Below are positions 23,671-54,715 of a DNA stretch of 54,715 nucleotides, one piece after another; position 1 is the stretch's first letter, and each line of letters opens with the position of its first letter. Source of the stretch: Catajapyx aquilonaris (lineage: Eukaryota); the NCBI GenBank assembly GCA_000934665.2, contig JYFJ02002563.1, positions 1-54,715 on the forward strand. The letters are read 5' to 3'. The position numbers were made by a program, and so were the translations under genes. Below the pieces are notes generated by a model. That model made no database searches. It was not told the origin of the DNA and saw only the letters and a program-made list of their open reading frames with translations.

Positions 23671-25401
<1,731 letters not shown>

Positions 25402-25655
25402 ACTGCAATGTCGCATTTACTATGAGCACAAGTGCACACAATACGGCAAGCCAGGTGCGTTATCAAGGTTATCTGTCGGAAAGCATTCTAATCAGGAAAA
25501 CCCTGCATGTGATAACTAGTCACTATGCCATGTGTTTTTCACTGGATATTCAGGTTGGAACTAGAAATCAAAGGTCAGCATGTGACCACATCTGGCATCT
25601 GTACAGGGAGAGGCCAAATGTTTGTGGTCCAGTCTGGATGAGATTGCCTTCGCTT

Positions 25656-25663
25656 TATAAAAG
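25656..25663 (+). promoter_or_regulatory. TATA box of cathepsin L-like B
   Basis: TATAAAAG about 40 nt upstream of ATG 25697. Confidence 0.6.
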
Positions 25664-25687
25664 GATGAGGTTCAGGAGCACGGCTAG

Positions 25688-27172
<1,485 letters not shown>

Positions 27173-27380
27173 ATGTACTGGATAAATCTGTTTTGGGTTA
27201 ATAAAGTTAATTACTGTACTTCAATCCTTTGGGAACTTGTGATCGGAAGGTAAAAAACGGAAGTGCGTGAAAATGGGCAATCCAGATGCAAAATTGCGCA
27301 CCGGTATCTGAAAAGCAATTTTGAGTTTTGAACGACCAACGTATTAGTAATTCAGAATCTTTATTTCCACACTCTTTGGT

Positions 27381-28707
<1,327 letters not shown>

Positions 28708-34917: not shown

Positions 34918-37900
34918 ATGTCTGCTGCGGGGACACAGCTTCTTTTGCAAGACCGAAGTTCCAGGTGGAAGCAGGATGAAAACTTCAAACCCTTGTATGT
35001 GTCCTATTATTATTTCTGTTGTCTATATTTGCAAGGTCGTGTTGATTGTTACCGTTTTTTATTCGTCTATTCAAAAGCACGTTTTCAAACGAGCCAATCA
35101 AGCGGTCGTCCAGTGCTGGCAAACTGCTGCCATTACTTCCAAGGCTGCCCAACCCTGAGCTGCTGCCTCTGCCTTTCAATCAAGACATAAATGGAAACCG
35201 CAGGTCGTTCGAGACACGTGGAACCGAAATCACAGCCAGTCTGGAAAATTTATTCCGAGATCAAAAGGTCAGTAGTGCGTCAAACATGATCGCCATATCC
35301 ACGACCTAAAGTGCGGTAATTACTCGTGTAATTAATTCCAGGTTCGAAGCAGTAAGAGCGACATGATGGTTCAGGCAGACCGATTGTCGTCTCCTGGTAA
35401 CGAACTTCAACGACGACATTCTGAAGCCTTTTTCGTTCCGGTTGTGCCGTCGCAGGAAGTTCTTCCTCAAGGTCCGAGTTGGATAGAGAGGCAGATGCTG
35501 AAGCAGAAGTTCAGAGGAACTCACGTGGCATACAGCGAGCATTTGATGATGATGGCAGCATCGGAGGAGTCCAAAGTTGGTCTCCAGCAGCAGGTGAGCA
35601 CCACGGACACTTCTGGTGGCGGAACTTCGTCGAAACCTAGCAGCGCAGACAGCCTGGAGTCCACTACCGACACCAACAAGAGGGCATCGTCGGCCTCAAA
35701 CCTGACAGACAGTCTGGAAGGGCACAGGATGGACGAGGAGGACATGTTGGTCATCAGGTGAGGTTTTGCCGGTAAAAAATAGGAAAAATATCATTTTTCA
35801 TAAGTTGCCTTCACAGATGCTCGACCACTGGTGTGGCCTACGACGTCCCAATGGACTGTTGCTCCAAGGACAGCCTGGACGACGGCGTGTCCGAGGATTC
35901 GCTCAACAATTATTCTGCTGGAAGGAACCCTTGGCAGCAGCAGATATCCGAAGATGACTCTGGAGGTGAGCCCACCACTGGTCAGCTGGTCAGCCCCACG
36001 AAGGAGGACAGCCGTCTGGTCAGAGGCGAAGTGGCGCTGTCCACGGAGGAGCAGATCAAGAGTCCTCGGAGGTCAAAGGGCTATGTGTCCTTCTTCATAC
36101 CGATAAAGCCGAAGCAGGCGGAAGAGAAGCGTCCCGATCCCGATCCTCAAGCAGTGTCCCCAAACTGGCTGCCCAGATCGCTAGAGAAAAGGATCGAACG
36201 ACGCCAGCAGATGATAGCCATGAGGCGAGAGGAGCGACGTCGATGCGGCGTCGAAGGCGTCGAGACACGTCATCAGCACCGCGATCTGATCAGTTGCCAC
36301 AGGCCTAGAAGCGACGGCGACTCCTCCAGGAAGAAGAAGTCGCCGATGGACGAGCTGGCTCTGTACCAGGCCATGTCCATCATCGAACGAGAGCTGATGC
36401 GCGACCAGCAGAGGAAGAGGCAGCGAGAGCAGTCGTACACTCAGGAGGAACCCGTTGTGGTGTCTCGAAGAACCAGCTCCCATTTGCTGAGCACCCAACT
36501 CAGCGCCATACGTGAGGACACAGAGCGTGAGGGTAGTGGACACTCGACAGGAGAGGACAACAAGCCTAAGACAACGCCACTGGCCGCCAAGAGACAACGC
36601 CCGTCGAGGATACCGGTACGGGTGAACCGCAGCTCCCAGATCCGGAGCCAGCACAACCATTCCAACCAGAGGCCCACCAGACGCCTCCTGGCCAAGAGAG
36701 CCAGCTCCCAGGAGTTCAACCGTCATCCCAGGAACCAGAACGACCGTCTGGAACAGCTTCTGAAGCCGGACCATGTCTTCGAGGACCTGAGGAAGTTCCA
36801 GTCCCTCCGAAGCCGGTTCCTCTACCACCAGAACGTCAACTCGGTTGTGGACGCCAACGGCACCTGCACCACCCAGACGTTCGTTCTGGACCAGAAGCCA
36901 CTTGGCGACAACCACAGGGCATCGTACGACAGCGAAAGCAGCAGCAGCGAGTCGGCGACTCTGGTTTCGTCGTCGCCCACGAACAACCGGACCAGAATCC
37001 CGCAGCCAACCAGCCCTGGTCCGATGTCCAACCCTAGAAGTCCGCGTTACTCCAAGTGGGACAGATCGAGGACCCCGGAAGGAATCCTTCCGGACATCTA
37101 CAAGCGACCCCCTCCGTTTTACGCACCCTCCGAACAGTCGTTGTCCCCGCAGAACAACAACTCGCAGCATCACCTGTGCGATATGGTGTACGACGGGTCC
37201 AGCTGGGTGCTGACCATGGCAGGGTCGGCGCATTCCAGCAGTAGAGTCGAGTCCAGGATGAAGATGAAGCTGAGCTTCTCACCTGGGACCACTCCGGTTG
37301 TGGTCACCAACAGCTCAGGGTCGTCACTCAAGAGGCGTCGCCAGCAGCACCATCAGCGTCGGAGCAGCGACGTCAGCAGGAGCGAAGACGACGACCAGAT
37401 GACTTATGGCAGCAGCAATGAGACATCTCCTCAAGGTACGCAGGAATAAGTAAATGATGCACCTGTGAGGGGTCTGAGATTTTTTTTAAACCCATCAAAG
37501 TCCACTTGAATAAACAAGATTGGTATAAATCACGTGAGCGTGATTCGAGTAGACCTTTTCTCACTGGGCAGTTGACCGAAAGTGGACCATGTAACCTACT
37601 TTGGTAACGCTGAATCCGAATCCGAAAACTGTTTGTCGCTGTCTCTTGCAGTTTAGGCCCTGATAGGCTGATACCTGTCCACAGACGGACGGACAGAGCC
37701 GTTCTATAAGACTTTTTCCGGCGAGAAAAAGTCTGAAACTGGTCGTATAAAATGAGCAAAAACTGATTACTTTCACTGTTACATATTCTTGAAACCTTTT
37801 ACGTCCATATGTTGCCATTAATAACCAATGGCATTAAAATGTATAATAAATTGCGACACGTATTTGTACCCCCCCCCCCCCCAACTGGACTTGGTTTTTT

Positions 37901-39019: not shown

Positions 39020-42917
<3,898 letters not shown>

Positions 42918-44767
42918 ATTGAAAAAAATTATGCGAATCTACAGTGTTGTTTGTTCACTGCCTTACGGACATGCTGCTCTCGACCAAAGTGACCTATGTC
43001 TATAGTCAAGATTGCGTTTGATAAAAATGTGGCCCAGCATGAAACTATCTTGACTATTGCCATTAGTGATTCACACTCTGTTGGACAAACCTGAGTTGAA
43101 ATGTTTTCAGGCAGTATCGTTGCAAGTGCATGATTTGATTTAATTAAGCATGAGAAAATTTAAAGTGGCTGTTAATCGATTTTATTTTTAACATAGCCAG
43201 ATCATATTTTGTGAGAAAATTTAGGTCGAAGAAATGTGGTCGGAATGTGTGTGCAAATGTTGACCAGGTCGAGGAATTTTGTAGCTGGTTGAAGAAATTC
43301 TTATGTTTAAATATTAAAGAATTTTATAATGTTCTGGGAGTGCAAAACCTTCCTGATTTGGCAAGCGGAATTAATTGAGGGTAAAATAAGCGTTTTATTA
43401 AAAAATTGAATCGTGGAATTGTGACTGACAAACTTTTCGATGGGCCTTTTGATACCGGTAGTACAATAACTTTATAATGTCATGTTGGTGATGACTATTG
43501 TTTCCTTCAGTTAATATTTAAGGCAGGATTGCACCTTCGCTCTAAATGCAAGGTTTACTATTGTTATTAATTTATTATTAACAATCGTAAACCTGGGATT
43601 TTGAGCGATGGTGCAATCAGACTTAAAAATTGCTGAAGTACATTAGAGAATTGTTTCTAAATTTGTGTATAGTTTTTTTTGGCGATTATTTAACATTAGA
43701 GACATTTTAAAAATCAGTTCAACTAATGAGTTAACTGCAATAGTGTCGACAGATCTTATTAACTGTTTCCTGGTGGCCTTTCCTCCTGCCTAGATCTGAC
43801 AAAACACATGTTTACATCATTAAAACACACTTTTGAATCTGCTTTAACATGTTAACAGTCTGACAACATCAGTAACAGGTCAGGGAATTTTTTGCCTACT
43901 TTGTTTGTATTACAGGTTTAATCTTATACGTTGTGATGAGGGTTTCTTAACTGTGATTAAAACGCACCTTTGCCAAGGTCGCTCGTGTAAATATCGTAAC
44001 GGCAGATGTGTACATATTTTTTTAACATTTTTACCGCAGTTACGAGTCATTATTGCACTTAGAGGGCGGGGTGGCTGGTCCTTGTTTTTAGTTGGTACCT
44101 ATTATGTTATCGGACGATGTTAATATTATACTTTTTTTTTTAAGTTGAATAAAAAGCAAATGTTCTTACGTACAGTAATTTTATTACTATTCCAGGCTTG
44201 CTATATATCCATAGTTACGCATTTAATGAATCACGTTTAAAAATTAACACAACCTGCAATTAGAATGAATGCATTTGCAATTCATAAAATATTGTGCAAT
44301 TAATTTAATTGAGGTTTACTAAAATATGGCAAATATAATTAGCATTCGAAGGATTAAATTGTCTTCAATCCTTTGCACCTGTTGCACAGAAGACGATTGT
44401 TGTAAGGGAACTTTGAACTGTACAGATCAATTTTCTCTCTATAAGGTCAATAGCTTGACCCTTTGACCCTGCCCACCCCCNCCCCCCCCCCCTGCATTGT
44501 TGCGCCCAGCTGGTTGCTGCGTTTCGCACAATGTTTCGCAGTTGGCGCGACTGTTGTTGGTCGGCCATATTGCGGATCGATGACGTAATTTCGCTGGTTA
44601 GAGGTTGTGCCTACCCTTCCCGGATCTTGCTGGACGACGACGAACCAGCACACAAAAAGGAAGGGATTTTTACACCGGAGTCTGACCCCGGATTGACCCC
44701 ATCAAGTGGTCAGCCCACTCTTCCACAGACAGACAGAGAAAAATCGAAAAACACACACAGAAACCAA

Positions 44768-44820
44768 ATGGCTTTCTTCAGCTCTTTCATGAAACAATTC
44801 CTGGACGATCCGTTCTTCCG
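44768..44820 (+). CDS. Orphan first coding exon MAFFSSFMKQFLDDPFFR (myeloid leukemia factor-like N-terminus)
   Basis: AAA-ATG-G start context and TTC CG|GTGAGC donor (phase 2). Preceded by a CpG-rich promoter-like patch with TGACGTAA at ~44581. Downstream partner exon uncertain. Confidence 0.6.
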
Positions 44821-45341
44821 GTGAGCTTATCCGCTTGTTTATTATATTTTAGTGCAATATTATTTACCATAAATATTATTATTTATTCGCATGATCTTTT
44901 GACCTCCAGCTGCCACGTCTCCTGCAGCTCGACCAAATTTTGTGTGCGAATCGATTTTTGCGGATTACAAAGGGGGACTGTATAGGGTCACACACAAAAA
45001 GTTGATTCCGTGACTTTTGACAGTTTGCGAAAAACCTCCGCCTTGAAGAGGTTTTAACATGCTCGCAGATTATTGCAATTCCTGCCCTTAAAACGGCATG
45101 GATTGGTGCAACAATGCAGCGAATTACGACCGAGTGCAAAAAAAGGGGGGCATCGCGGAACCACGCCTAAATAATCAGTTTCAGCAGTTGCAAAAACCTG
45201 CAATTAACGCCCCAAGTTTGCCAATTTGCTGTTAGTGGCTTATTTATGCACAGCTCAAATCCATATTCCACAGACGATGCTACGAATGGTTTACTCCAGC
45301 AACCAACAATAATAGTAACCAGCAATGGTACTGGTATACAT

Positions 45342-45410
45342 AATTCCGGGGTTGTTTCCGTATAATAGGCCACAGCCGCCTCCTTCCTTCCCTATCCTTG
45401 GCCCCATCCA
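45342..45410 (+). mobile_element. 5'-truncated copy of the SINE at 10510-10806
   Basis: AATTCCGGGGTTGTTTCCGTATAATAGGCCACAGCCGCCTCCTTCCTTCCCTATCC matches ~10637-10692. Confidence 0.8.
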
Positions 45411-47982
45411 ATGGTGGTACTTACATCAAGTACCACTGTGACATTGCGTTCATTCCAGTACTGCTGCTGCAATAATTTTTTTTTTGTCCTGATTCCAGGA
45501 GCGATGACTCTTGAGGGTTCAGGCTTCCAGAAACGGTTGACATAAACGCACAGTTACCCAGAAGTGGTTTTCAAATCGATATGTTGCTGAGGGGGTTTTT
45601 GTGGGGTTGGAGGTATGTGGTGGAAGGGGGACACTCGTCCCACACGCGCACTTTTTACGCACTCACGCATGCCACAAAGTGTTTGACCGCGTCTATATAC
45701 AAGAGGTTAAATTGAATTATTGAAAGTACAAAGGGCGAAGTCTAAGGTGTGCAATACTAGTTCAATACTATCGTAAAACAATAGGTTAAATTTTTAATAC
45801 CGACAGCATTACGTTCGTTTGTTCACAAGCAAACAGGTGACAACTTATTGAAAATATGCTTCTAAAGCTTGCTTAGGAAAGAAAAAAAAGTGAGTGTGTG
45901 AATGGGTCATTGTTCCTGTCGGCTTCATTCAATTATTAACGGCGTCTCTTCTTCCTCGGCAATTATAAACGCATTTCCGGTTGCGTCTCCTGGTTACGGC
46001 CTCGATATGGATTGGAGTCGATACTATTTCAGGCCTCGCGGGCCATTGCACTTTTACACGCACTTTAAAAGGGTGGAAAGGTGGGGGTTGCCCTCTACAC
46101 AAATAATAAACGCGGAAAACTGAATCACCCCCTCCGGTTCAATGAATCCCCGATCGATTTGGGAAAGGTGTATATAGTAGAGGCTATAGTAGTGCTGCAC
46201 CCCCTTTCGAACGGCTCTCCTTTGCAATTTTTCTCCATTGGTTTTAGTCCTGGTATGTCAGGTGTTGCAACCGGTCATCTCTGGAGGAGTGCGTTGAACC
46301 CAGGTAATAATTAGTGAGACATTACCCGCCCCCCTTTTTTCGATGGGAGCATTTCACACCCATTCTTAGTAGGGTGATACCGACTGGCACCAGATAATAT
46401 GCATGGGGGGTTGTACTATAAGGTTCATCAATGGCCTATAGGACTCTAGATAGGTGACTGCCCCCTAGGTTTTTGGTTGTGTCTGGGAAGTAGGCTGATC
46501 GATTCTCTCCACCCCCACCACCCACCACCCAACATTTCTGTCTTGAGGGTTGGGGGACCCCTCTGCATGCAACATATAGACTGACACGAGTCGGTTCACT
46601 TCTGGTTACAAAGACACGTGTGCCTTTGGTTTGCTGCTGTTTTTTTATAGTGACCGGGTTTTTTAATTGGGAGGAGAGTTATGGCCTGATTGGCTTCCAT
46701 TGAAGTCGAGGATTGCGCTGTGTTGGTAGCAGTGTCATGTAAGAGATGGTTTCAAAAATATTAATAGGGAGTTCAATTACACGGTAGAATGTACCAGGAA
46801 AATAATTTGCCAATCACTCGTTTTTCTTCCGATTATTGTTGTCCATTCGAATTGAATTAATTAATCATGTCACCAGCAGGTTATGTCGCCAAGTATAAGC
46901 TGCACACTTGTACATGCATTTCATAGTTTCGTGTACATATTTAATTTAAAGTACCAGTACCGAGAAATTTAGGAGTCAGCACTTTAATACCTGGAAATTT
47001 AGCAGGCAACGTTGAGAAGTGGCATGCAGTAGATGGCATGGAATTTGTCGTTTCCAGTGCAGGTCGATACACTGCCATATCCTGGCACTGTACTTTATTG
47101 AAGTGCAGTATTAAAATTATTAGGCGCTAATTGAGCGGGTCTATTTTTGGATGCGTGCAGTACTAATACGTTAATTGCAACTGGGGAGGAAGGAAAAATT
47201 GAAAGGAAGGATATCTGCACATTTTAAAAACCAGCTCACCTAATAAATAATTGTAACTGTGTAGTTGTAATAGTAAATTGTAATTTCAATGAGGATCAGA
47301 AATTCTTAGTACAGACTGCATAGGATTCGCTGATTTATATCGTGTGACCAGCCAATGCTAAGGAAAAATGTCGTGACCTGTGTGCATAATGTTTCTGAGT
47401 AATCAAATGGCGTTTTACCCGGAGAAACAGTAAGCGATTTAGCGAGTATGAGCAATGGCGAAAACTATCGCAAAGTGGTTTTCCAAACTACCTATTTGGC
47501 TCACCCCAGGTTGCATAAGAGGTGCCAAAGCCCGGCGATATATATCGCATGGCTCTTGTAGCAAGCCAAGATGATCGCGTGCCGACATGATCGAGTGACC
47601 TCATAAGGCAAACCCTTCTTAAAATTTTTCGTCGTAAACATTATAAGTGTGCTTTGGGTGGCAGGGGAATTCCCATGCGTCTCGCACACTCGGACATATT
47701 TCGTCTGAGCACGCCGAAAAGATCACATGCGCCGATTTTTGCTCGGGGAAAAAGAGGTCTCCGCAAATGGGGTAAACCTTGGCCCCCTTGCCAAAAGCTA
47801 ATTTGCCCAGGTCCGTATAATGACTACTCGTATCTTGAGATTGGCGGGGGTAGCCTCCAGTTGGCTCTTGATTTATATCGGGTTGGTGGGAGGGTTTTTG
47901 CGAAAATTGAGGCCGACGCACGGTTGAGTGACGTTGAGACTATAGAAAGGGTATCACAGCACAGCTCGATCCTCGGAAGGCA

Positions 47983-48179
47983 ATGAGCGTGTGCCTGAGA
48001 GAAGTGTCGGCTGCTGCACCGGTCGACGCCTTGGAGCTCAAGTTCTCCGCGAGGTACATTCGGAGCCTGTGTCCTAATCGTCCGGTGCTGCATCTTCCGG
48101 AGATACCAGAGAACGGAAGCATGGCGCCCAGTGTTTCGGTCAGGTTGCCTCCGATCATGGAGTCCTCCTCAAGCACCAG
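47983..48179 (+). CDS. Candidate alternative first exon of katanin p60-like 1
   Basis: MSVCLREVS...ESSSSTR ending ACC AG|GTGAGT (consensus donor, phase 2); in frame with acceptor 50655. Confidence 0.6.
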
Positions 48180-49822
48180 GTGAGTCTGACGGATCAGTCG
48201 CCCAAATCAACGAAATTTCAGGTCCAAACTATATACCTATGAGTCAACACGGACATATAAGCAGACGGAGAGAATAAGGCGATTAGCAGTACGATTTTCA
48301 GATGTCATTTGGACGTTGAAAAGTGTGTATCCGACCACGGAATTGTTGCCGCGCAAGAGAGTCCCAATGACCCCATATACAGGAAGGAGTGTAACGATTT
48401 TTGTCTGAATATTTTGCTGGTCAATAAGTCGAGGTTCCCGGAAGATATTTTCTTTTATGCGATGCAGAACAGGAAAAGGGGGAGCCATTAAAAAGTTTGA
48501 GGATCGAGGGGGGGGAAATAGCGTTGATGCAGCAACCTGTATCCGAACCGATAAGAAACCGATAAGGTCTGTGGCCACACGAGCCTGAGAAATTTACGGT
48601 CTAAACCACGGTCTAAACACAGCAACGATGTGTTTCATGAAGTTCAGCTCAAGTTACTATGTTTTTTAAGCGCCTGATTCACCGGATTATGCATGGGCTT
48701 CAAGGCAAAGGAAAGGCCCTAAGAGAATTCTCCCAACGTCTTGATGAATAAATAATATATTGCATCATGCGATGCAATACAATCCACTTCCAATGATTTA
48801 GTTGAGCCAGCCCCTATTTAATTTTCTCTGCGAGAATTTGCTGTAAAATGCTCTAAAAAATTCGCATCAAACACTTTCCACGATTGAATGTTTCGTTCTG
48901 AGTTGCAAATAATTCTGGAAGTGGCTTGCGTATACATATTTAGGGCGCTCCATATCGCGTGCTCTCTACTATATAGTACATGACATGTCGTGGCAACGAT
49001 TGCTTTCGCTTGTAATCTGCGCCCTGTGCAAATGCACCCCGATTTCGCCGGCAATGATTTTCCCTTGTACCTTTGCATTATCGCAACCCAAATCAGCAAG
49101 ATTGTCCGCTTTAAATGCAAGGTGAAAATAAAAATTGTTATCAGTGTTTCCTGAATGTTCGTGTCAGGCTTAATACAAAAACTGGTAATCTTATTGTGCC
49201 TAATTCTTGTTACATTTAATGAATCTGAATTGTCCTATATGGTCCGACTCGGCTGTAATAAACAATGAAAGGGTCGAGTTACTGCTAACTTAGCAGTACC
49301 ATTGCCAACACTGGTACTGCTAAGTTAGCAGTAACTATAGCAGTGGGACGAAAATCCCACCCATATAAATACTGATGGGAAAATAATTGTCAATACTTTG
49401 AAGGCCTCTATTTGGACGGTTTCCACGATGATATTGCACATCCATTTTTTTACATTGCTTACAGTATATTGGTCACGCACATTTCTGCGCGCCAAATCGA
49501 TCGAATATGCATAGATTCGCCTAACATTTTTCCAGAGTCGATTCCCCCCAAAAACATTTTGTGCGTCTTGGTCTTGGACGATGGACTCTGGGGTTTCCCC
49601 CAACTTCCTTCCAAGCGTCGTTGTTATGCACGACTGGTATGTTGTGGGGGGGATCAATTGCGACACAGGTGTAATACGTCTGCCACACGCAGCAGTGAGG
49701 CGTCCTTGCAAAATTAATACAGTTATTGGCTTTTTTCCTCCCCCACCAACTCCACCAAGTTGGTCGAATCGGTGTTGAGTGAGTCAAGGTTGCAAGCTCA
49801 GTAGTTTGCTGGATATGCAACA

Positions 49823-51988
<2,166 letters not shown>

Positions 51989-52728
51989 CTGCTTAACGAA
52001 ATAATGCTGTTATTGCTTCCCATGGAGGCCCCGTCATAAATCAACTAGTCGAAGGAAATCAGTCTTTTGGGTATTTATTAGGTAACGTACAGTGGGAGAC
52101 ATGAGGAAGTCACATGCTTCTTTTTTTTGGAATGGAAGAGGGAAAGGGTGTATAAATTATTACATAAGCACTCTTGTAATAAGTACATCCAAGTCTCTTT
52201 TTTTTCTTTTTTGGAAGGGGGACCAAAGTTGGTGAGCAAAGTCCCTCTCGAGGAAAAAAAAAAGAGGCAACAAAATTCACAAAAAAAAGGCAAACAATCC
52301 TAGTCTCAAATCTGAACTGTCCTAAGCTGTAGAGCAAACCAAGTCAAGTGACATGCTGCCAAATAATCGCAAGGGGTTTGGCAGTGCAAATTGTTTGGTC
52401 CTCATAACTCTTTGCAGAAAAAAAAAGTCCAACTGAACACCCAAAAAATGTGAATAAAATCATCTCTATAATATCTAGGTCTCTTTCAACCTGCTTTAAA
52501 TTCTTTTTATTTTCAGCTATAATTTTACTCTTTTTCCCAAAATACGTTGTCTCAGCCTAACATTACCAAAAATACATATCATGCCGCCACATCGGGGCAG
52601 CCATAACAACAACAATTTCGCTCCTTTTTTGGCTGTCGCTCCTTGGAAAAGGAGGGGAGAGCTTGCGACTCTTTCTTGAGTTTTTTAAAAAAAAAAAAAA
52701 AGACAAACAGTGCTGGAAAGGCGTTGGA

Positions 52729-54438
52729 TCACTGAGCCTTTTTCGCTCCCCGAGCTTGCCAAGCCACCATCAAGTTGCGGGCGAAGTAGAGAGAGAAGAG
52801 GTGGACTTGTATGGCCACTGTTATGAAAGCGTACCAAAGGACTGCAATTGGGTAACCCTGAAATGTTTAAAGTCTTGGTAGTGAGAGTTGTATGGACAAC
52901 AATTTCAAAACAACGGCACAATACAGATTCATCGCTCAGCAAATAATTGGCATGGAATGTACACAAATCTCGTGCTAAATAACATACCTTACTCCAGGAA
53001 GAAACTAGCATCTGTTACGGCCATGTCTAGTGGATACTGATTTGCCAAATTTTATCTTCCGAGTTACAATGTGAACTGGACAATAATATCATGGAATATT
53101 ATTAGACAGTTACGCCTACACAAACCGAAACACGGCTTGCTAAGAGAGATAAAAATGTACGTGACATACAAAATGAACAGGTCATACTAATCTTGCACTT
53201 TCAGATTCCAAAGTTTTATAAGGTAATTCGTTAAATTTAATACAAAAATAGGACAACCAAATTGTTTCCAAAGTGTGCAGCGAGTGTTTCAGAACCAAGT
53301 TCCCATCCATAACGATGTCGCAGACGGTCATTTCCACTGTCTCATATGACATATTCATATCATATTGCATTGCTTTGCATATGTACAATACATTCAGTCT
53401 TGAAGTTAACTTTAGAGGAGCAAATGTCCGTTTATACCAATACGGATGCGAGCTACATTCTGAAACACACAGTGTATTTTACACGACACACAATAATGCC
53501 ATTTCTAACCTGCCAGACTTCCACATTGTCAAGGGAAGTGGTAGTGATGTATTCCCAGAAGTCGGAGAAGTAGTAGACAGCAGCAAAAAGGACTGGCAGG
53601 ATGCCAACTGCCACAGTGCCCCCTATGTAGTTGCGGATCGACTTGATCCGGTTCCTCCTTATGGCGGACAAGCCCACGAAGGTGAAGGCAACGCTCAGGC
53701 ACCAAGTGTACTCCCACAATAACGGCTGGCGGTGAACATGTCGTCTCTTTTTTTAAACCCATCTTTCTTTTTTTTGATAACACAAATATTGCAAGCGGGC
53801 CTTTCTTGGTGCACACAAAATTATAGTCATAGTCATTTATTTATCTCCATGTCTCATTATCACAGGGAGATTTACAAAATTATTCAGCTAAATTATGCAA
53901 AATAATTTGGCTCGCTCGTGACACCCAAGAAAGGCTCCTACTTCCCAATGCTGTTTAACGTACCTTGGGGACTTCAAGCTCTTCGACTTCCATAATAAAA
54001 ATGTCCAGTCTGTCGAGTATGTCCGAGGCCAGTTTGGCCAGGAGCGCAAAGAAGAGGAGGTAGTGGAAGAAAATGCAGTATTTCAGACGGTTCTTGTTCA
54101 GGGCACTGAAACGATAATTATTTATTTTTGTTGTTTTACCATCAATAAATTATTCATCATGCAATTTCAATGTGTATTAAAACGTGCGTTGTTTGCATTT
54201 TAATTTGGTGTGATTGTGCCGGTGGTTGATTGGAATGTCCAGGCTTATTTTTAGCAGGCTAGTACATGACAGTACATATACTGAGAGTACTGGTTGTGTA
54301 ATAAAATGTTACATGACTCTTGTGGTTACTTCATTTTTTTTTTTTAGGTTACCTCTGGTGGTACTGGGCTGCTACCCTCTGCCTGTGGACAAAGTCTGTT
54401 CCGTCCGTGCCCGTCACCATCGCCCCTTTGGACGCCAT
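52729..54438 (-). CDS. jagn: Protein jagunal (ER membrane protein, 190 aa)
   Basis: Exons 54438-54353, 54105-53964, 53725-53510, 52857-52729. MASKGAMVTGTDGTDFVHRQRVAAQY...ALNKNRLKYCIFFH...EELEVPKPLLWEY...GYPIAVLWYAF...QVH; C-terminal KKAQ is a KKxx ER-retrieval motif. Confidence 0.96.
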
Positions 54439-54519
54439 CCTCTCCTCCCTGTCCTTGTTGTTTGTTTCTTTTTCTAAAAGAAAAAGATCTTCTCTCCACA
54501 GCAAGAAGCACACTTCTTG

Positions 54520-54715
54520 TCTTTTTCACAACATGGCAGGATCCAGGCGACGGTGCTGCCCTCACTCGGCCACAGAGGGGAGGCTGGTGGGAGCTCGATA
54601 TTTTTGGGGCCAGCCAGGACAATCGTCTGGCCAGAGGAACATGGCTCTTCTATCCGGCCAATCACAGACGGGCGCTCCCCCGCGCCACAGGAGAAGTGTG
54701 GCATGCGCTTGTACT
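54520..54715. promoter_or_regulatory. Putative jagunal promoter region
   Basis: GC-rich, upstream of the jagunal ATG; GCCAATC CCAAT box, GCATGCGC NRF1/EWG-like site, AACATGGC YY1-like sites. Confidence 0.4.

Follow-up and report, generated by a model that had tools for sequence, protein, structure and literature searches.

Canonical katanin p60 proteins, among them KATNA1/KATNAL1 and Drosophila Kat60, combine an AAA plus Vps4_C module with an N-terminal MIT domain. The accessible part of one study describes the MIT domain and the linker of canonical p60 as binding p80 and microtubules, and states that Drosophila Kat60 has the MIT domain (PMC4401518); a second Drosophila p60, Kat-60L1, is described in the accessible parts of two others (PMC4858946, PMC4890891). 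For the N-terminus of the MIT-less katanin clade treated here, we found no description in the literature searched. The other family that bears on the locus is MLF (MLF1, MLF2, and Drosophila MLF), whose MLF homology domain is, in the accessible part of the source, the only conserved MLF domain and lies centrally, at residues 96-202 of the fly protein (PMC5549762). HAX1, in the part of the source available, is a family related to MLF that occurs in insects too (PMC2914655).

The window analyzed here is a stretch of 54,715 nucleotides from Catajapyx aquilonaris, contig JYFJ02002563.1. A short exon at 44768-44820 of this window encodes a peptide that we take to resemble the N-terminal start of MLF proteins. 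The first intron of MLF genes presumably falls right after DDPFF, and the likeness to the MLF family and to HAX1 would be limited to a short N-terminal stretch with DPFF at its end and an intron behind it. A first-pass annotation of the window had accordingly offered two readings, both of which it considered unusual: an MLF gene whose first intron, of at least 10 kb, contains a same-strand katanin-like gene and an antisense jagunal gene, or an exon that splices directly to the katanin-like exon at 50655 and so places an MLF-type N-terminus on a severing ATPase. Comparison with orthologous proteins points instead to what is most likely an ordinary conserved gene structure.

The exon at 44768-44820 and its upstream flank

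The exon lies on the + strand and opens with an ATG at 44768-44770 in the context aaaccaaATGG (A at -3, G at +4), which is the sole ATG within 44600-44770. Its 17 codons, MAFFSSFMKQFLDDPFF, are followed by a leftover CG that ends at 44820, ahead of the phase-2 donor GTGAGC at 44821-44826. The codon score of the exon is +0.30 bit per codon, in its own frame alone. Upstream lies a promoter-like stretch with the presumed 5′ UTR (44480-44767, +), whose promoter role is judged from sequence and which contains the CRE TGACGTAA at 44581-44588 and ATCGAT at 44576-44581; the region 44450-44767 has a GC content of 0.54 and a CpG o/e of 0.79. The ATG exon, the phase-2 donor, and the CpG/CRE promoter-like flank that the first-pass annotation had described are thus all present as letters in the DNA. 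A single N at 44481 sits within a poly-C run, ∼290 bases 5′ of the start codon, and the exact length of that run is uncertain because the N is inside it. The N runs of the window begin at 44481, 4095, and 5156, with 8 N altogether.

General searches with the exon 1 peptide were uninformative as to family. No Pfam family matched it at E up to 10, a word-indexed protein search (40 residues) gave no candidate with three common words, exhaustive phmmer (30 residues) gave no protein at E up to 0.001, and the protein atlas held no usable match either for the peptide or for residues 1-70 of the katydid protein P0016 introduced below.

Orthologous N-termini

Among the 216 katanins that were fetched, 19 carry an ARMMDSL-type motif within their first 150 residues, and the MIT-type motif GNY[DE], which occurs in 147 of the 216, is found in none of these 19. 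An M-x-F-F...F-x-x-DPFF start is present in six of the 19 fetched clade members and stands at residue 1 in five of them; the carriers are katanin p60-like proteins of springtails, a katydid, a termite, a stink bug, and a whitefly. The DPFF itself lies no more than 40 residues from the start in five of the 19, and in the sixth (P0041), a longer model, it lies at residue 53. The gene models of the other 13 clade members have no DPFF start, and show a second N-terminus type or are truncated.

The six models are P0006 (Allacma fusca), P0007 (Folsomia candida), P0016 (Anabrus simplex), P0063 (Cryptotermes secundus), P0023 (Halyomorpha halys), and P0041 (Bemisia tabaci), all of them bearing the database name “katanin p60 ATPase-containing subunit A-like 1” or A1. 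Their N-termini are MAFFGSMMKEFMEDPFF in the katydid (P0016), MAFFSSMMREFVEDPFF in the termite (P0063), MALFRSILKDFFTDPFF in the first springtail (P0006), and MNFFGSIIREFMSDPFF in the second (P0007), and in these four the start is followed by the ARMMDSL-type motif and then by a W-x-A-S-L-R-K/R-R-D-P-E motif. All six are like the predicted window protein in having the DPFF start, the ARMMDSL-type and WxASLR(K/R)RDPE motifs, and AAA plus Vps4_C, and they are of comparable length (483-586 aa, versus 551 aa for the window protein). The window protein differs from them in the His-rich and Ser/Gln-rich filling between its motifs. This is a comparison of proteins; the exon structure and the 5-kb first intron are taken from this window alone.

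When aligned, the exon 1 peptide stands column for column with the first residues of P0016, P0063, P0006, P0007, P0023, and P0041, and 12 of its 17 residues (71%) are identical to those of the katydid protein. In the same alignment, the sequence of exon 2 (see below) falls under the ARMMDSL-type and WxASLR(K/R)RDPE motifs. Two profiles were then searched against all 2,972 six-frame ORFs of at least 10 aa in the window. The N-terminal profile, made from five orthologue DPFF-type starts and 18 positions long, has as its sole match the ORF 44459-44821, which ends in exon 1 (E 8.5e-06; next best 0.94). The next-region profile, made from 18 clade members and 109 positions long, likewise has a sole match, the ORF 49805-50455 (E 1e-19; next best 7.5). 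Judged by these profiles, exon 1 exceeds chance, being the sole significant match to the orthologous start among the 2,972 ORFs.

Because the springtail and insect versions of the katanin-like protein begin with the same short peptide, we assign exon 1 to the katanin-like gene downstream; with a probability of roughly 0.9, it would be the first coding exon of this same-strand katanin p60-like gene, spliced over a five-exon model. The DPFF start is found on the six katanin p60-like proteins named above, which makes it the family's own conserved start rather than the mark of an MLF-katanin chimera, and a start that belongs to the family leaves nothing unusual in the gene structure.

Five-exon gene model

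The model gives a CDS of 1,656 bases with no internal stop, encoding 551 aa, with all four introns GT-AG, and the predicted protein aligns colinearly with eight orthologues over its full length, residue 1 included. Coding exon 1 (44768-44820, +) of this MIT-less katanin p60-like gene is followed by intron 1 (44821-49902, +), of 5,082 bases, which runs from GTGAGC to tcttcttgtatgtcggcag. The predicted join of 44820 to 49903 (tcttcttgtatgtcggcag|C) is in frame, with CG + C giving Arg. Coding exon 2 (49903-50379, +) is 477 bases long, has phase 2 at both ends, and encodes the ARMMDSL-type and W-x-A-S-L-R-K/R-R-D-P-E motifs; its donor, AAG|GTACAG in phase 2, fits the acceptor at 50655 across intron 2 (50380-50654, +; 275 bases, GTACAG...TTGCAG), both this donor and this acceptor being weak by eye. 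Coding exon 3 (50655-50938, +) would encode the linker together with the first part of the AAA module, and is followed by intron 3 (50939-51025, +), which is 87 bases long, in frame, and contains a stop. The AAA ATPase domain is encoded by coding exon 4 (51026-51668, +), and after intron 4 (51669-51789, +; 121 bases) coding exon 5 (51790-51988, +) supplies a Vps4_C-type C-terminus and the stop TAA at 51986-51988. The position and phase of intron 4 are common to the canonical katanin gene upstream. Exon 2 has a codon score of +0.21 bit per codon, and the scores of exons 3-5 lie between +0.32 and +0.37.

At 5.1 kb, intron 1 greatly exceeds the other introns that we mapped, whose lengths run from 60 to ∼1,600 bases. 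It contains almost no sequence repeated within the window, and has no Pfam, Rfam, or tRNA match, hence no snoRNA or tRNA was found in it. The 31 other ORFs of at least 60 codons inside it have codon scores of -0.26 to +0.21. Phase-2 acceptors with a pyrimidine tract, leading into an ORF of at least 35 codons, were scanned over 44860-54700; a clearly positive codon score appears at the acceptors of this katanin-like gene alone, and within intron 1 no phase-2 acceptor leads into a positively scored ORF. A 60-base palindrome, 90% self-complementary, occupies 49277-49336 in the intron, ∼570 bases before exon 2, and lies just 5′ of a GC-rich stretch that is a possible internal promoter. The end of intron 1 was also considered as a copy of the end of exon 1, and this similarity was rejected as not significant, given that 223 of 622 control windows score equally high.

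Katanin clade and the paralogue pair

The window contains a second katanin gene, the canonical katanin p60 at 39044-42911 (+), which has both MIT (E 1.5e-34) and AAA matches in Pfam and whose exons were mapped by tblastn. The two genes (39044-42911 and 44768-51988, both +) stand in tandem, with 1.9 kb from the stop codon of one to the start codon of the next. For their placement, we ran a quick IQ-TREE search with 41 of the 216 fetched katanins, hand-picked across taxa, and both window copies. The downstream copy falls in a clade of nine rows (SH-aLRT 100), where it is sister to two springtail proteins (93), and the upstream copy falls among MIT-bearing katanins, near mayflies. These placements assign the downstream gene to an old hexapod clade of katanin p60 paralogues that lack the MIT domain. 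The upstream katanin is 80-88% identical to arthropod katanins, and the best matches of its MIT exon are mayfly, cockroach, and termite proteins at 70-63% identity, which by themselves point to an arthropod, probably an early-branching hexapod, as the source of the window. The downstream katanin finds its best matches in the database among katanin p60 proteins, and its identity to the 120 database katanins compared does not exceed 66.5%.

The AAA plus Vps4_C module of the downstream gene is also that of the canonical proteins, the window copy included: in the first AAA block, the upstream and downstream copies are identical at 112 of 126 residues. The MIT domain of the canonical proteins is what the downstream gene does not have. 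Pfam gives no match to the katanin MIT domain PF21126 in 44768-54715, and when the MIT exon of the upstream gene was run by tblastn against 43000-50700, no MIT remnant for the downstream gene appeared (best E 0.18).

DNA similarity between the two window katanins is limited to three coding blocks (78, 69, and 65%). A recent tandem duplicate was considered and rejected, the similarity being confined to coding blocks, dS being 1.63, and the two genes belonging to different old clades. Since tandem katanins in different ancient clades are not expected from a recent duplication, retained linkage or an old tandem pair accounts for their arrangement. In a comparison of 50939-51025 with 41769-42409, the last intron position is the only one that the paralogues have in common. 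The 87-base in-frame intron 50939-51025 of the MIT-less gene, inside ...IAG|LQEAK..., is absent from the canonical gene, and at least three introns in the linker and AAA region of the canonical gene have no counterpart in the MIT-less one.

We can relate this clade to Drosophila with the aid of the dipteran proteins. An ARMMDSL-type motif occurs in four of them (Teleopsis, Episyrphus, Culicoides, and Bradysia), and the two that were put in the tree, those of Teleopsis and Culicoides, fall in the clade. The dipteran models fetched have an MRGEE/MKRDD-type N-terminus, not the DPFF type. Given that Drosophila Kat60 bears the MIT domain, that a second p60 exists in flies, and that dipterans occur in the clade, the MIT-less clade is probably, by elimination from the papers, the group of Drosophila Kat-60L1.

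Protein product and proposed working

In the + read-through frames of 44768-54715, Pfam finds AAA (PF00004, E 4.1e-39) and Vps4_C (PF09336, E 5.2e-09), and the translation of the downstream katanin-like gene has Walker A GPPGTGKT and Walker B FIDEID; pore-loop, sensor, and arginine-finger stretches also appear to be kept, on our reading of the translation. The catalytic part is under purifying selection, with a dN/dS of 0.098 between the two window katanins over 185 codons (dN 0.16, dS 1.63). From the Walker A and B motifs, the Vps4_C helix, and this selection, the downstream product would be expected to be an active hexameric severing ATPase.

We propose that the transcript would start behind the CRE-bearing promoter, at ∼44.6-44.7 kb, and would be spliced from 44820 to 49903 over the 5,082-base intron and then at 50655, 51026, and 51790. 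The product, an AAA ATPase of 551 residues, would keep the katanin-type catalytic module intact but have no MIT domain. In the place of that domain, it would have ∼180 mostly disordered-looking residues that include three short conserved motifs; exon 1 would encode the first of these. The three motifs may be short linear binding sites through which the enzyme is targeted or regulated independently of p80. An AlphaFold2 model of P0016 (20 rows) is poor, with a mean pLDDT of 53 and values mostly <50 over the N-terminal 200 residues, and can give at most a hint: it has short helices at residues 5-12 and 27-34, and renders the conserved motifs as short helices in an otherwise unstructured N-terminus.

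A bolder reading, which we regard as doubtful, is that the DPFF start and the helix-like ARMMDSL-type motif form a portable linear module common to MIT-less katanins and MLF/HAX1, replacing the MIT domain for a partner (e.g. a chaperone or adaptor) in place of p80.

Possible alternative start near 49.7 kb and the CpG pattern

Exon 2 has an in-frame 5′ extension (49823-49902, +) with its own ATG at 49823, a possible alternative start; its ORF is open from 49805, following a stop at 49802-49804. The surrounding 49.6-50.4 kb have a GC content of 0.59-0.63 and a CpG o/e of 0.76-0.82. Because a GC- and CpG-rich stretch with an in-frame ATG thus precedes exon 2, an internal promoter is possible there, as the main or an additional start. 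CpG o/e is 0.88 over 44821-49600, like that of intergenic sequence (0.84), 0.76 over 49600-50379, and 0.26 in intron 2; it is 0.54 in the rest of the MIT-less gene and 0.53 in the body of the upstream katanin, with depletion beginning near 50.2 kb. These values are at odds with a long methylated transcription unit from 44.7 kb.

These figures bear on a reading in which exon 1 is little used or a relic, with transcription mainly from an internal promoter at ∼49.7 kb and translation from the ATG at 49823. It would account for the sharp fall of CpG o/e to 0.26-0.54 past 49.6-50.4 kb while 44.8-49.6 kb stays at 0.88, it makes use of an ATG that is in frame after the stop, and a second N-terminus type does exist in the models of other species. 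Yet the CpG depletion weighs little because it is uneven among the genes of this window; exon 1 keeps its ATG, its frame, its donor, and 12 of 17 residues of the katydid protein, which is unexpected of a relic; and the 27-codon extension has no detectable homologue. In particular, a seven-protein profile of the second N-terminus type finds none in the window (best E 0.78, to unrelated ORFs). We therefore hold the relic reading to be improbable, and the starts at ∼44.6-44.7 kb and ∼49.7 kb may simply be alternatives.

As a separate observation, CpG o/e is 0.3-0.6 in both katanin bodies (40000-42900 and 50200-52700) and ∼0.9-1.0 between them (43000-50200). The pattern suggests gene-body methylation in Catajapyx aquilonaris, with a sharp boundary near 50.2 kb.

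Proposed direct joining to 50655

The first-pass annotation was right in connecting exon 1 with the katanin-like gene, and in stating that the acceptor at 50655 is in frame with it (CG|A = Arg), which we confirm. It most likely erred in taking 50655 as the acceptor of exon 1, having missed the exon at 49903-50379, and was wrong in treating the result as a chimera and as unusual. The frame is what speaks for a main product spliced directly from 44820 to 50655. Against it, skipping 49903-50379 would delete two motifs, the ARMMDSL-type one and W-x-A-S-L-R-R-R-D-P-E, that all 18 aligned orthologues conserve almost without variation, and the ORF 49805-50455 that would be passed over both matches the orthologue profile at E 1e-19 and scores as coding. 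The direct join, very improbable as the main product, may occur as a minor isoform.

Search for MLF homology in the window

The statement of the first-pass annotation that the window has no MLF-like second exon holds: there is no match to Mlf1IP, and exon 1 holds the single occurrence of the D[DE]P[FM]F pattern in the six frames of the whole window. Neither the three + frames of 44768-54715, searched with an E threshold of 1, nor 150 of the 151 ORFs of at least 75 aa that precede 44000, searched with a threshold of 0.001, match Mlf1IP (PF10248). MLF core motifs gave four scattered single matches only. No second exon, of MLF type or any other, was found over 44.8-49.8 kb by Pfam, by the core motifs, or by the scan of acceptors and codon scores. 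Nor is Mlf1IP among the Pfam matches listed for five DPFF-start orthologues (the complete matches for P0006 and P0007, the best 25 for each of the other three). The accessible portions of the literature searched gave no position for the first MLF1 intron.

For an MLF host, exon 1 would have to open an MLF/HAX1 gene of which the rest lies beyond 54715, with the katanin-like gene and jagunal nested in an intron of at least 9.9 kb. The presumed likeness of the N-terminal pattern to the MLF start would be consistent with this, as would the end of the window ∼200-300 bases past the region of the jagunal start codon. The MLF homology domain that would identify such a gene is absent from the window, with no Mlf1IP in 44768-54715, in the peptide, or in the Pfam matches listed for the five orthologues with the same start; the conserved start of the katanin-like orthologues already explains the peptide, and the part conserved next in those proteins is found in frame 5 kb further along the same strand. 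Because exon 1 is explained as the katanin-like gene's own start, no MLF host gene is needed, and the proposal of one with an intron of at least 10 kb, left without support, is very improbable.

Other genes in the window

A Pfam map of 150 of the 151 ORFs of at least 75 aa before 44000 identifies spermine synthase, ZC4H2, and a mitochondrial pyruvate carrier in addition to the canonical katanin p60. Three cathepsin-L-like genes (Peptidase_C1 with the I29 propeptide) lie at 23674-28318 on alternating strands. A 557-codon open frame at 35776-37446 (+) has a GC content of 0.59 and a codon score of +0.28 bit per codon in one frame only; it matches no Pfam family and is probably a large exon of a low-complexity protein. 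The jagunal gene (52750-54440, −; identified by Pfam) lies tail to tail with the katanin-like gene. Its Pfam matches overlap in the profile, with profile positions 66-177 at ∼53429-53761 and 113-186 at ∼52750-52974, which suggests that the last jagunal exon is duplicated or alternative.

Implications

The main value of these results is one of correction, in that an apparent fusion or nested-gene host becomes a normal five-exon gene. They provide a complete predicted gene model for the MIT-less katanin of Catajapyx aquilonaris, a gene that a gene finder confined to a few kb would truncate, its first exon being 5 kb upstream. If the portable-module reading were true, it would mean an ancient exchange of a targeting module in one katanin branch. 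For the family as a whole, the point of curiosity is that a clade of severing enzymes has a conserved, uncharacterized N-terminus in the place of the MIT domain.
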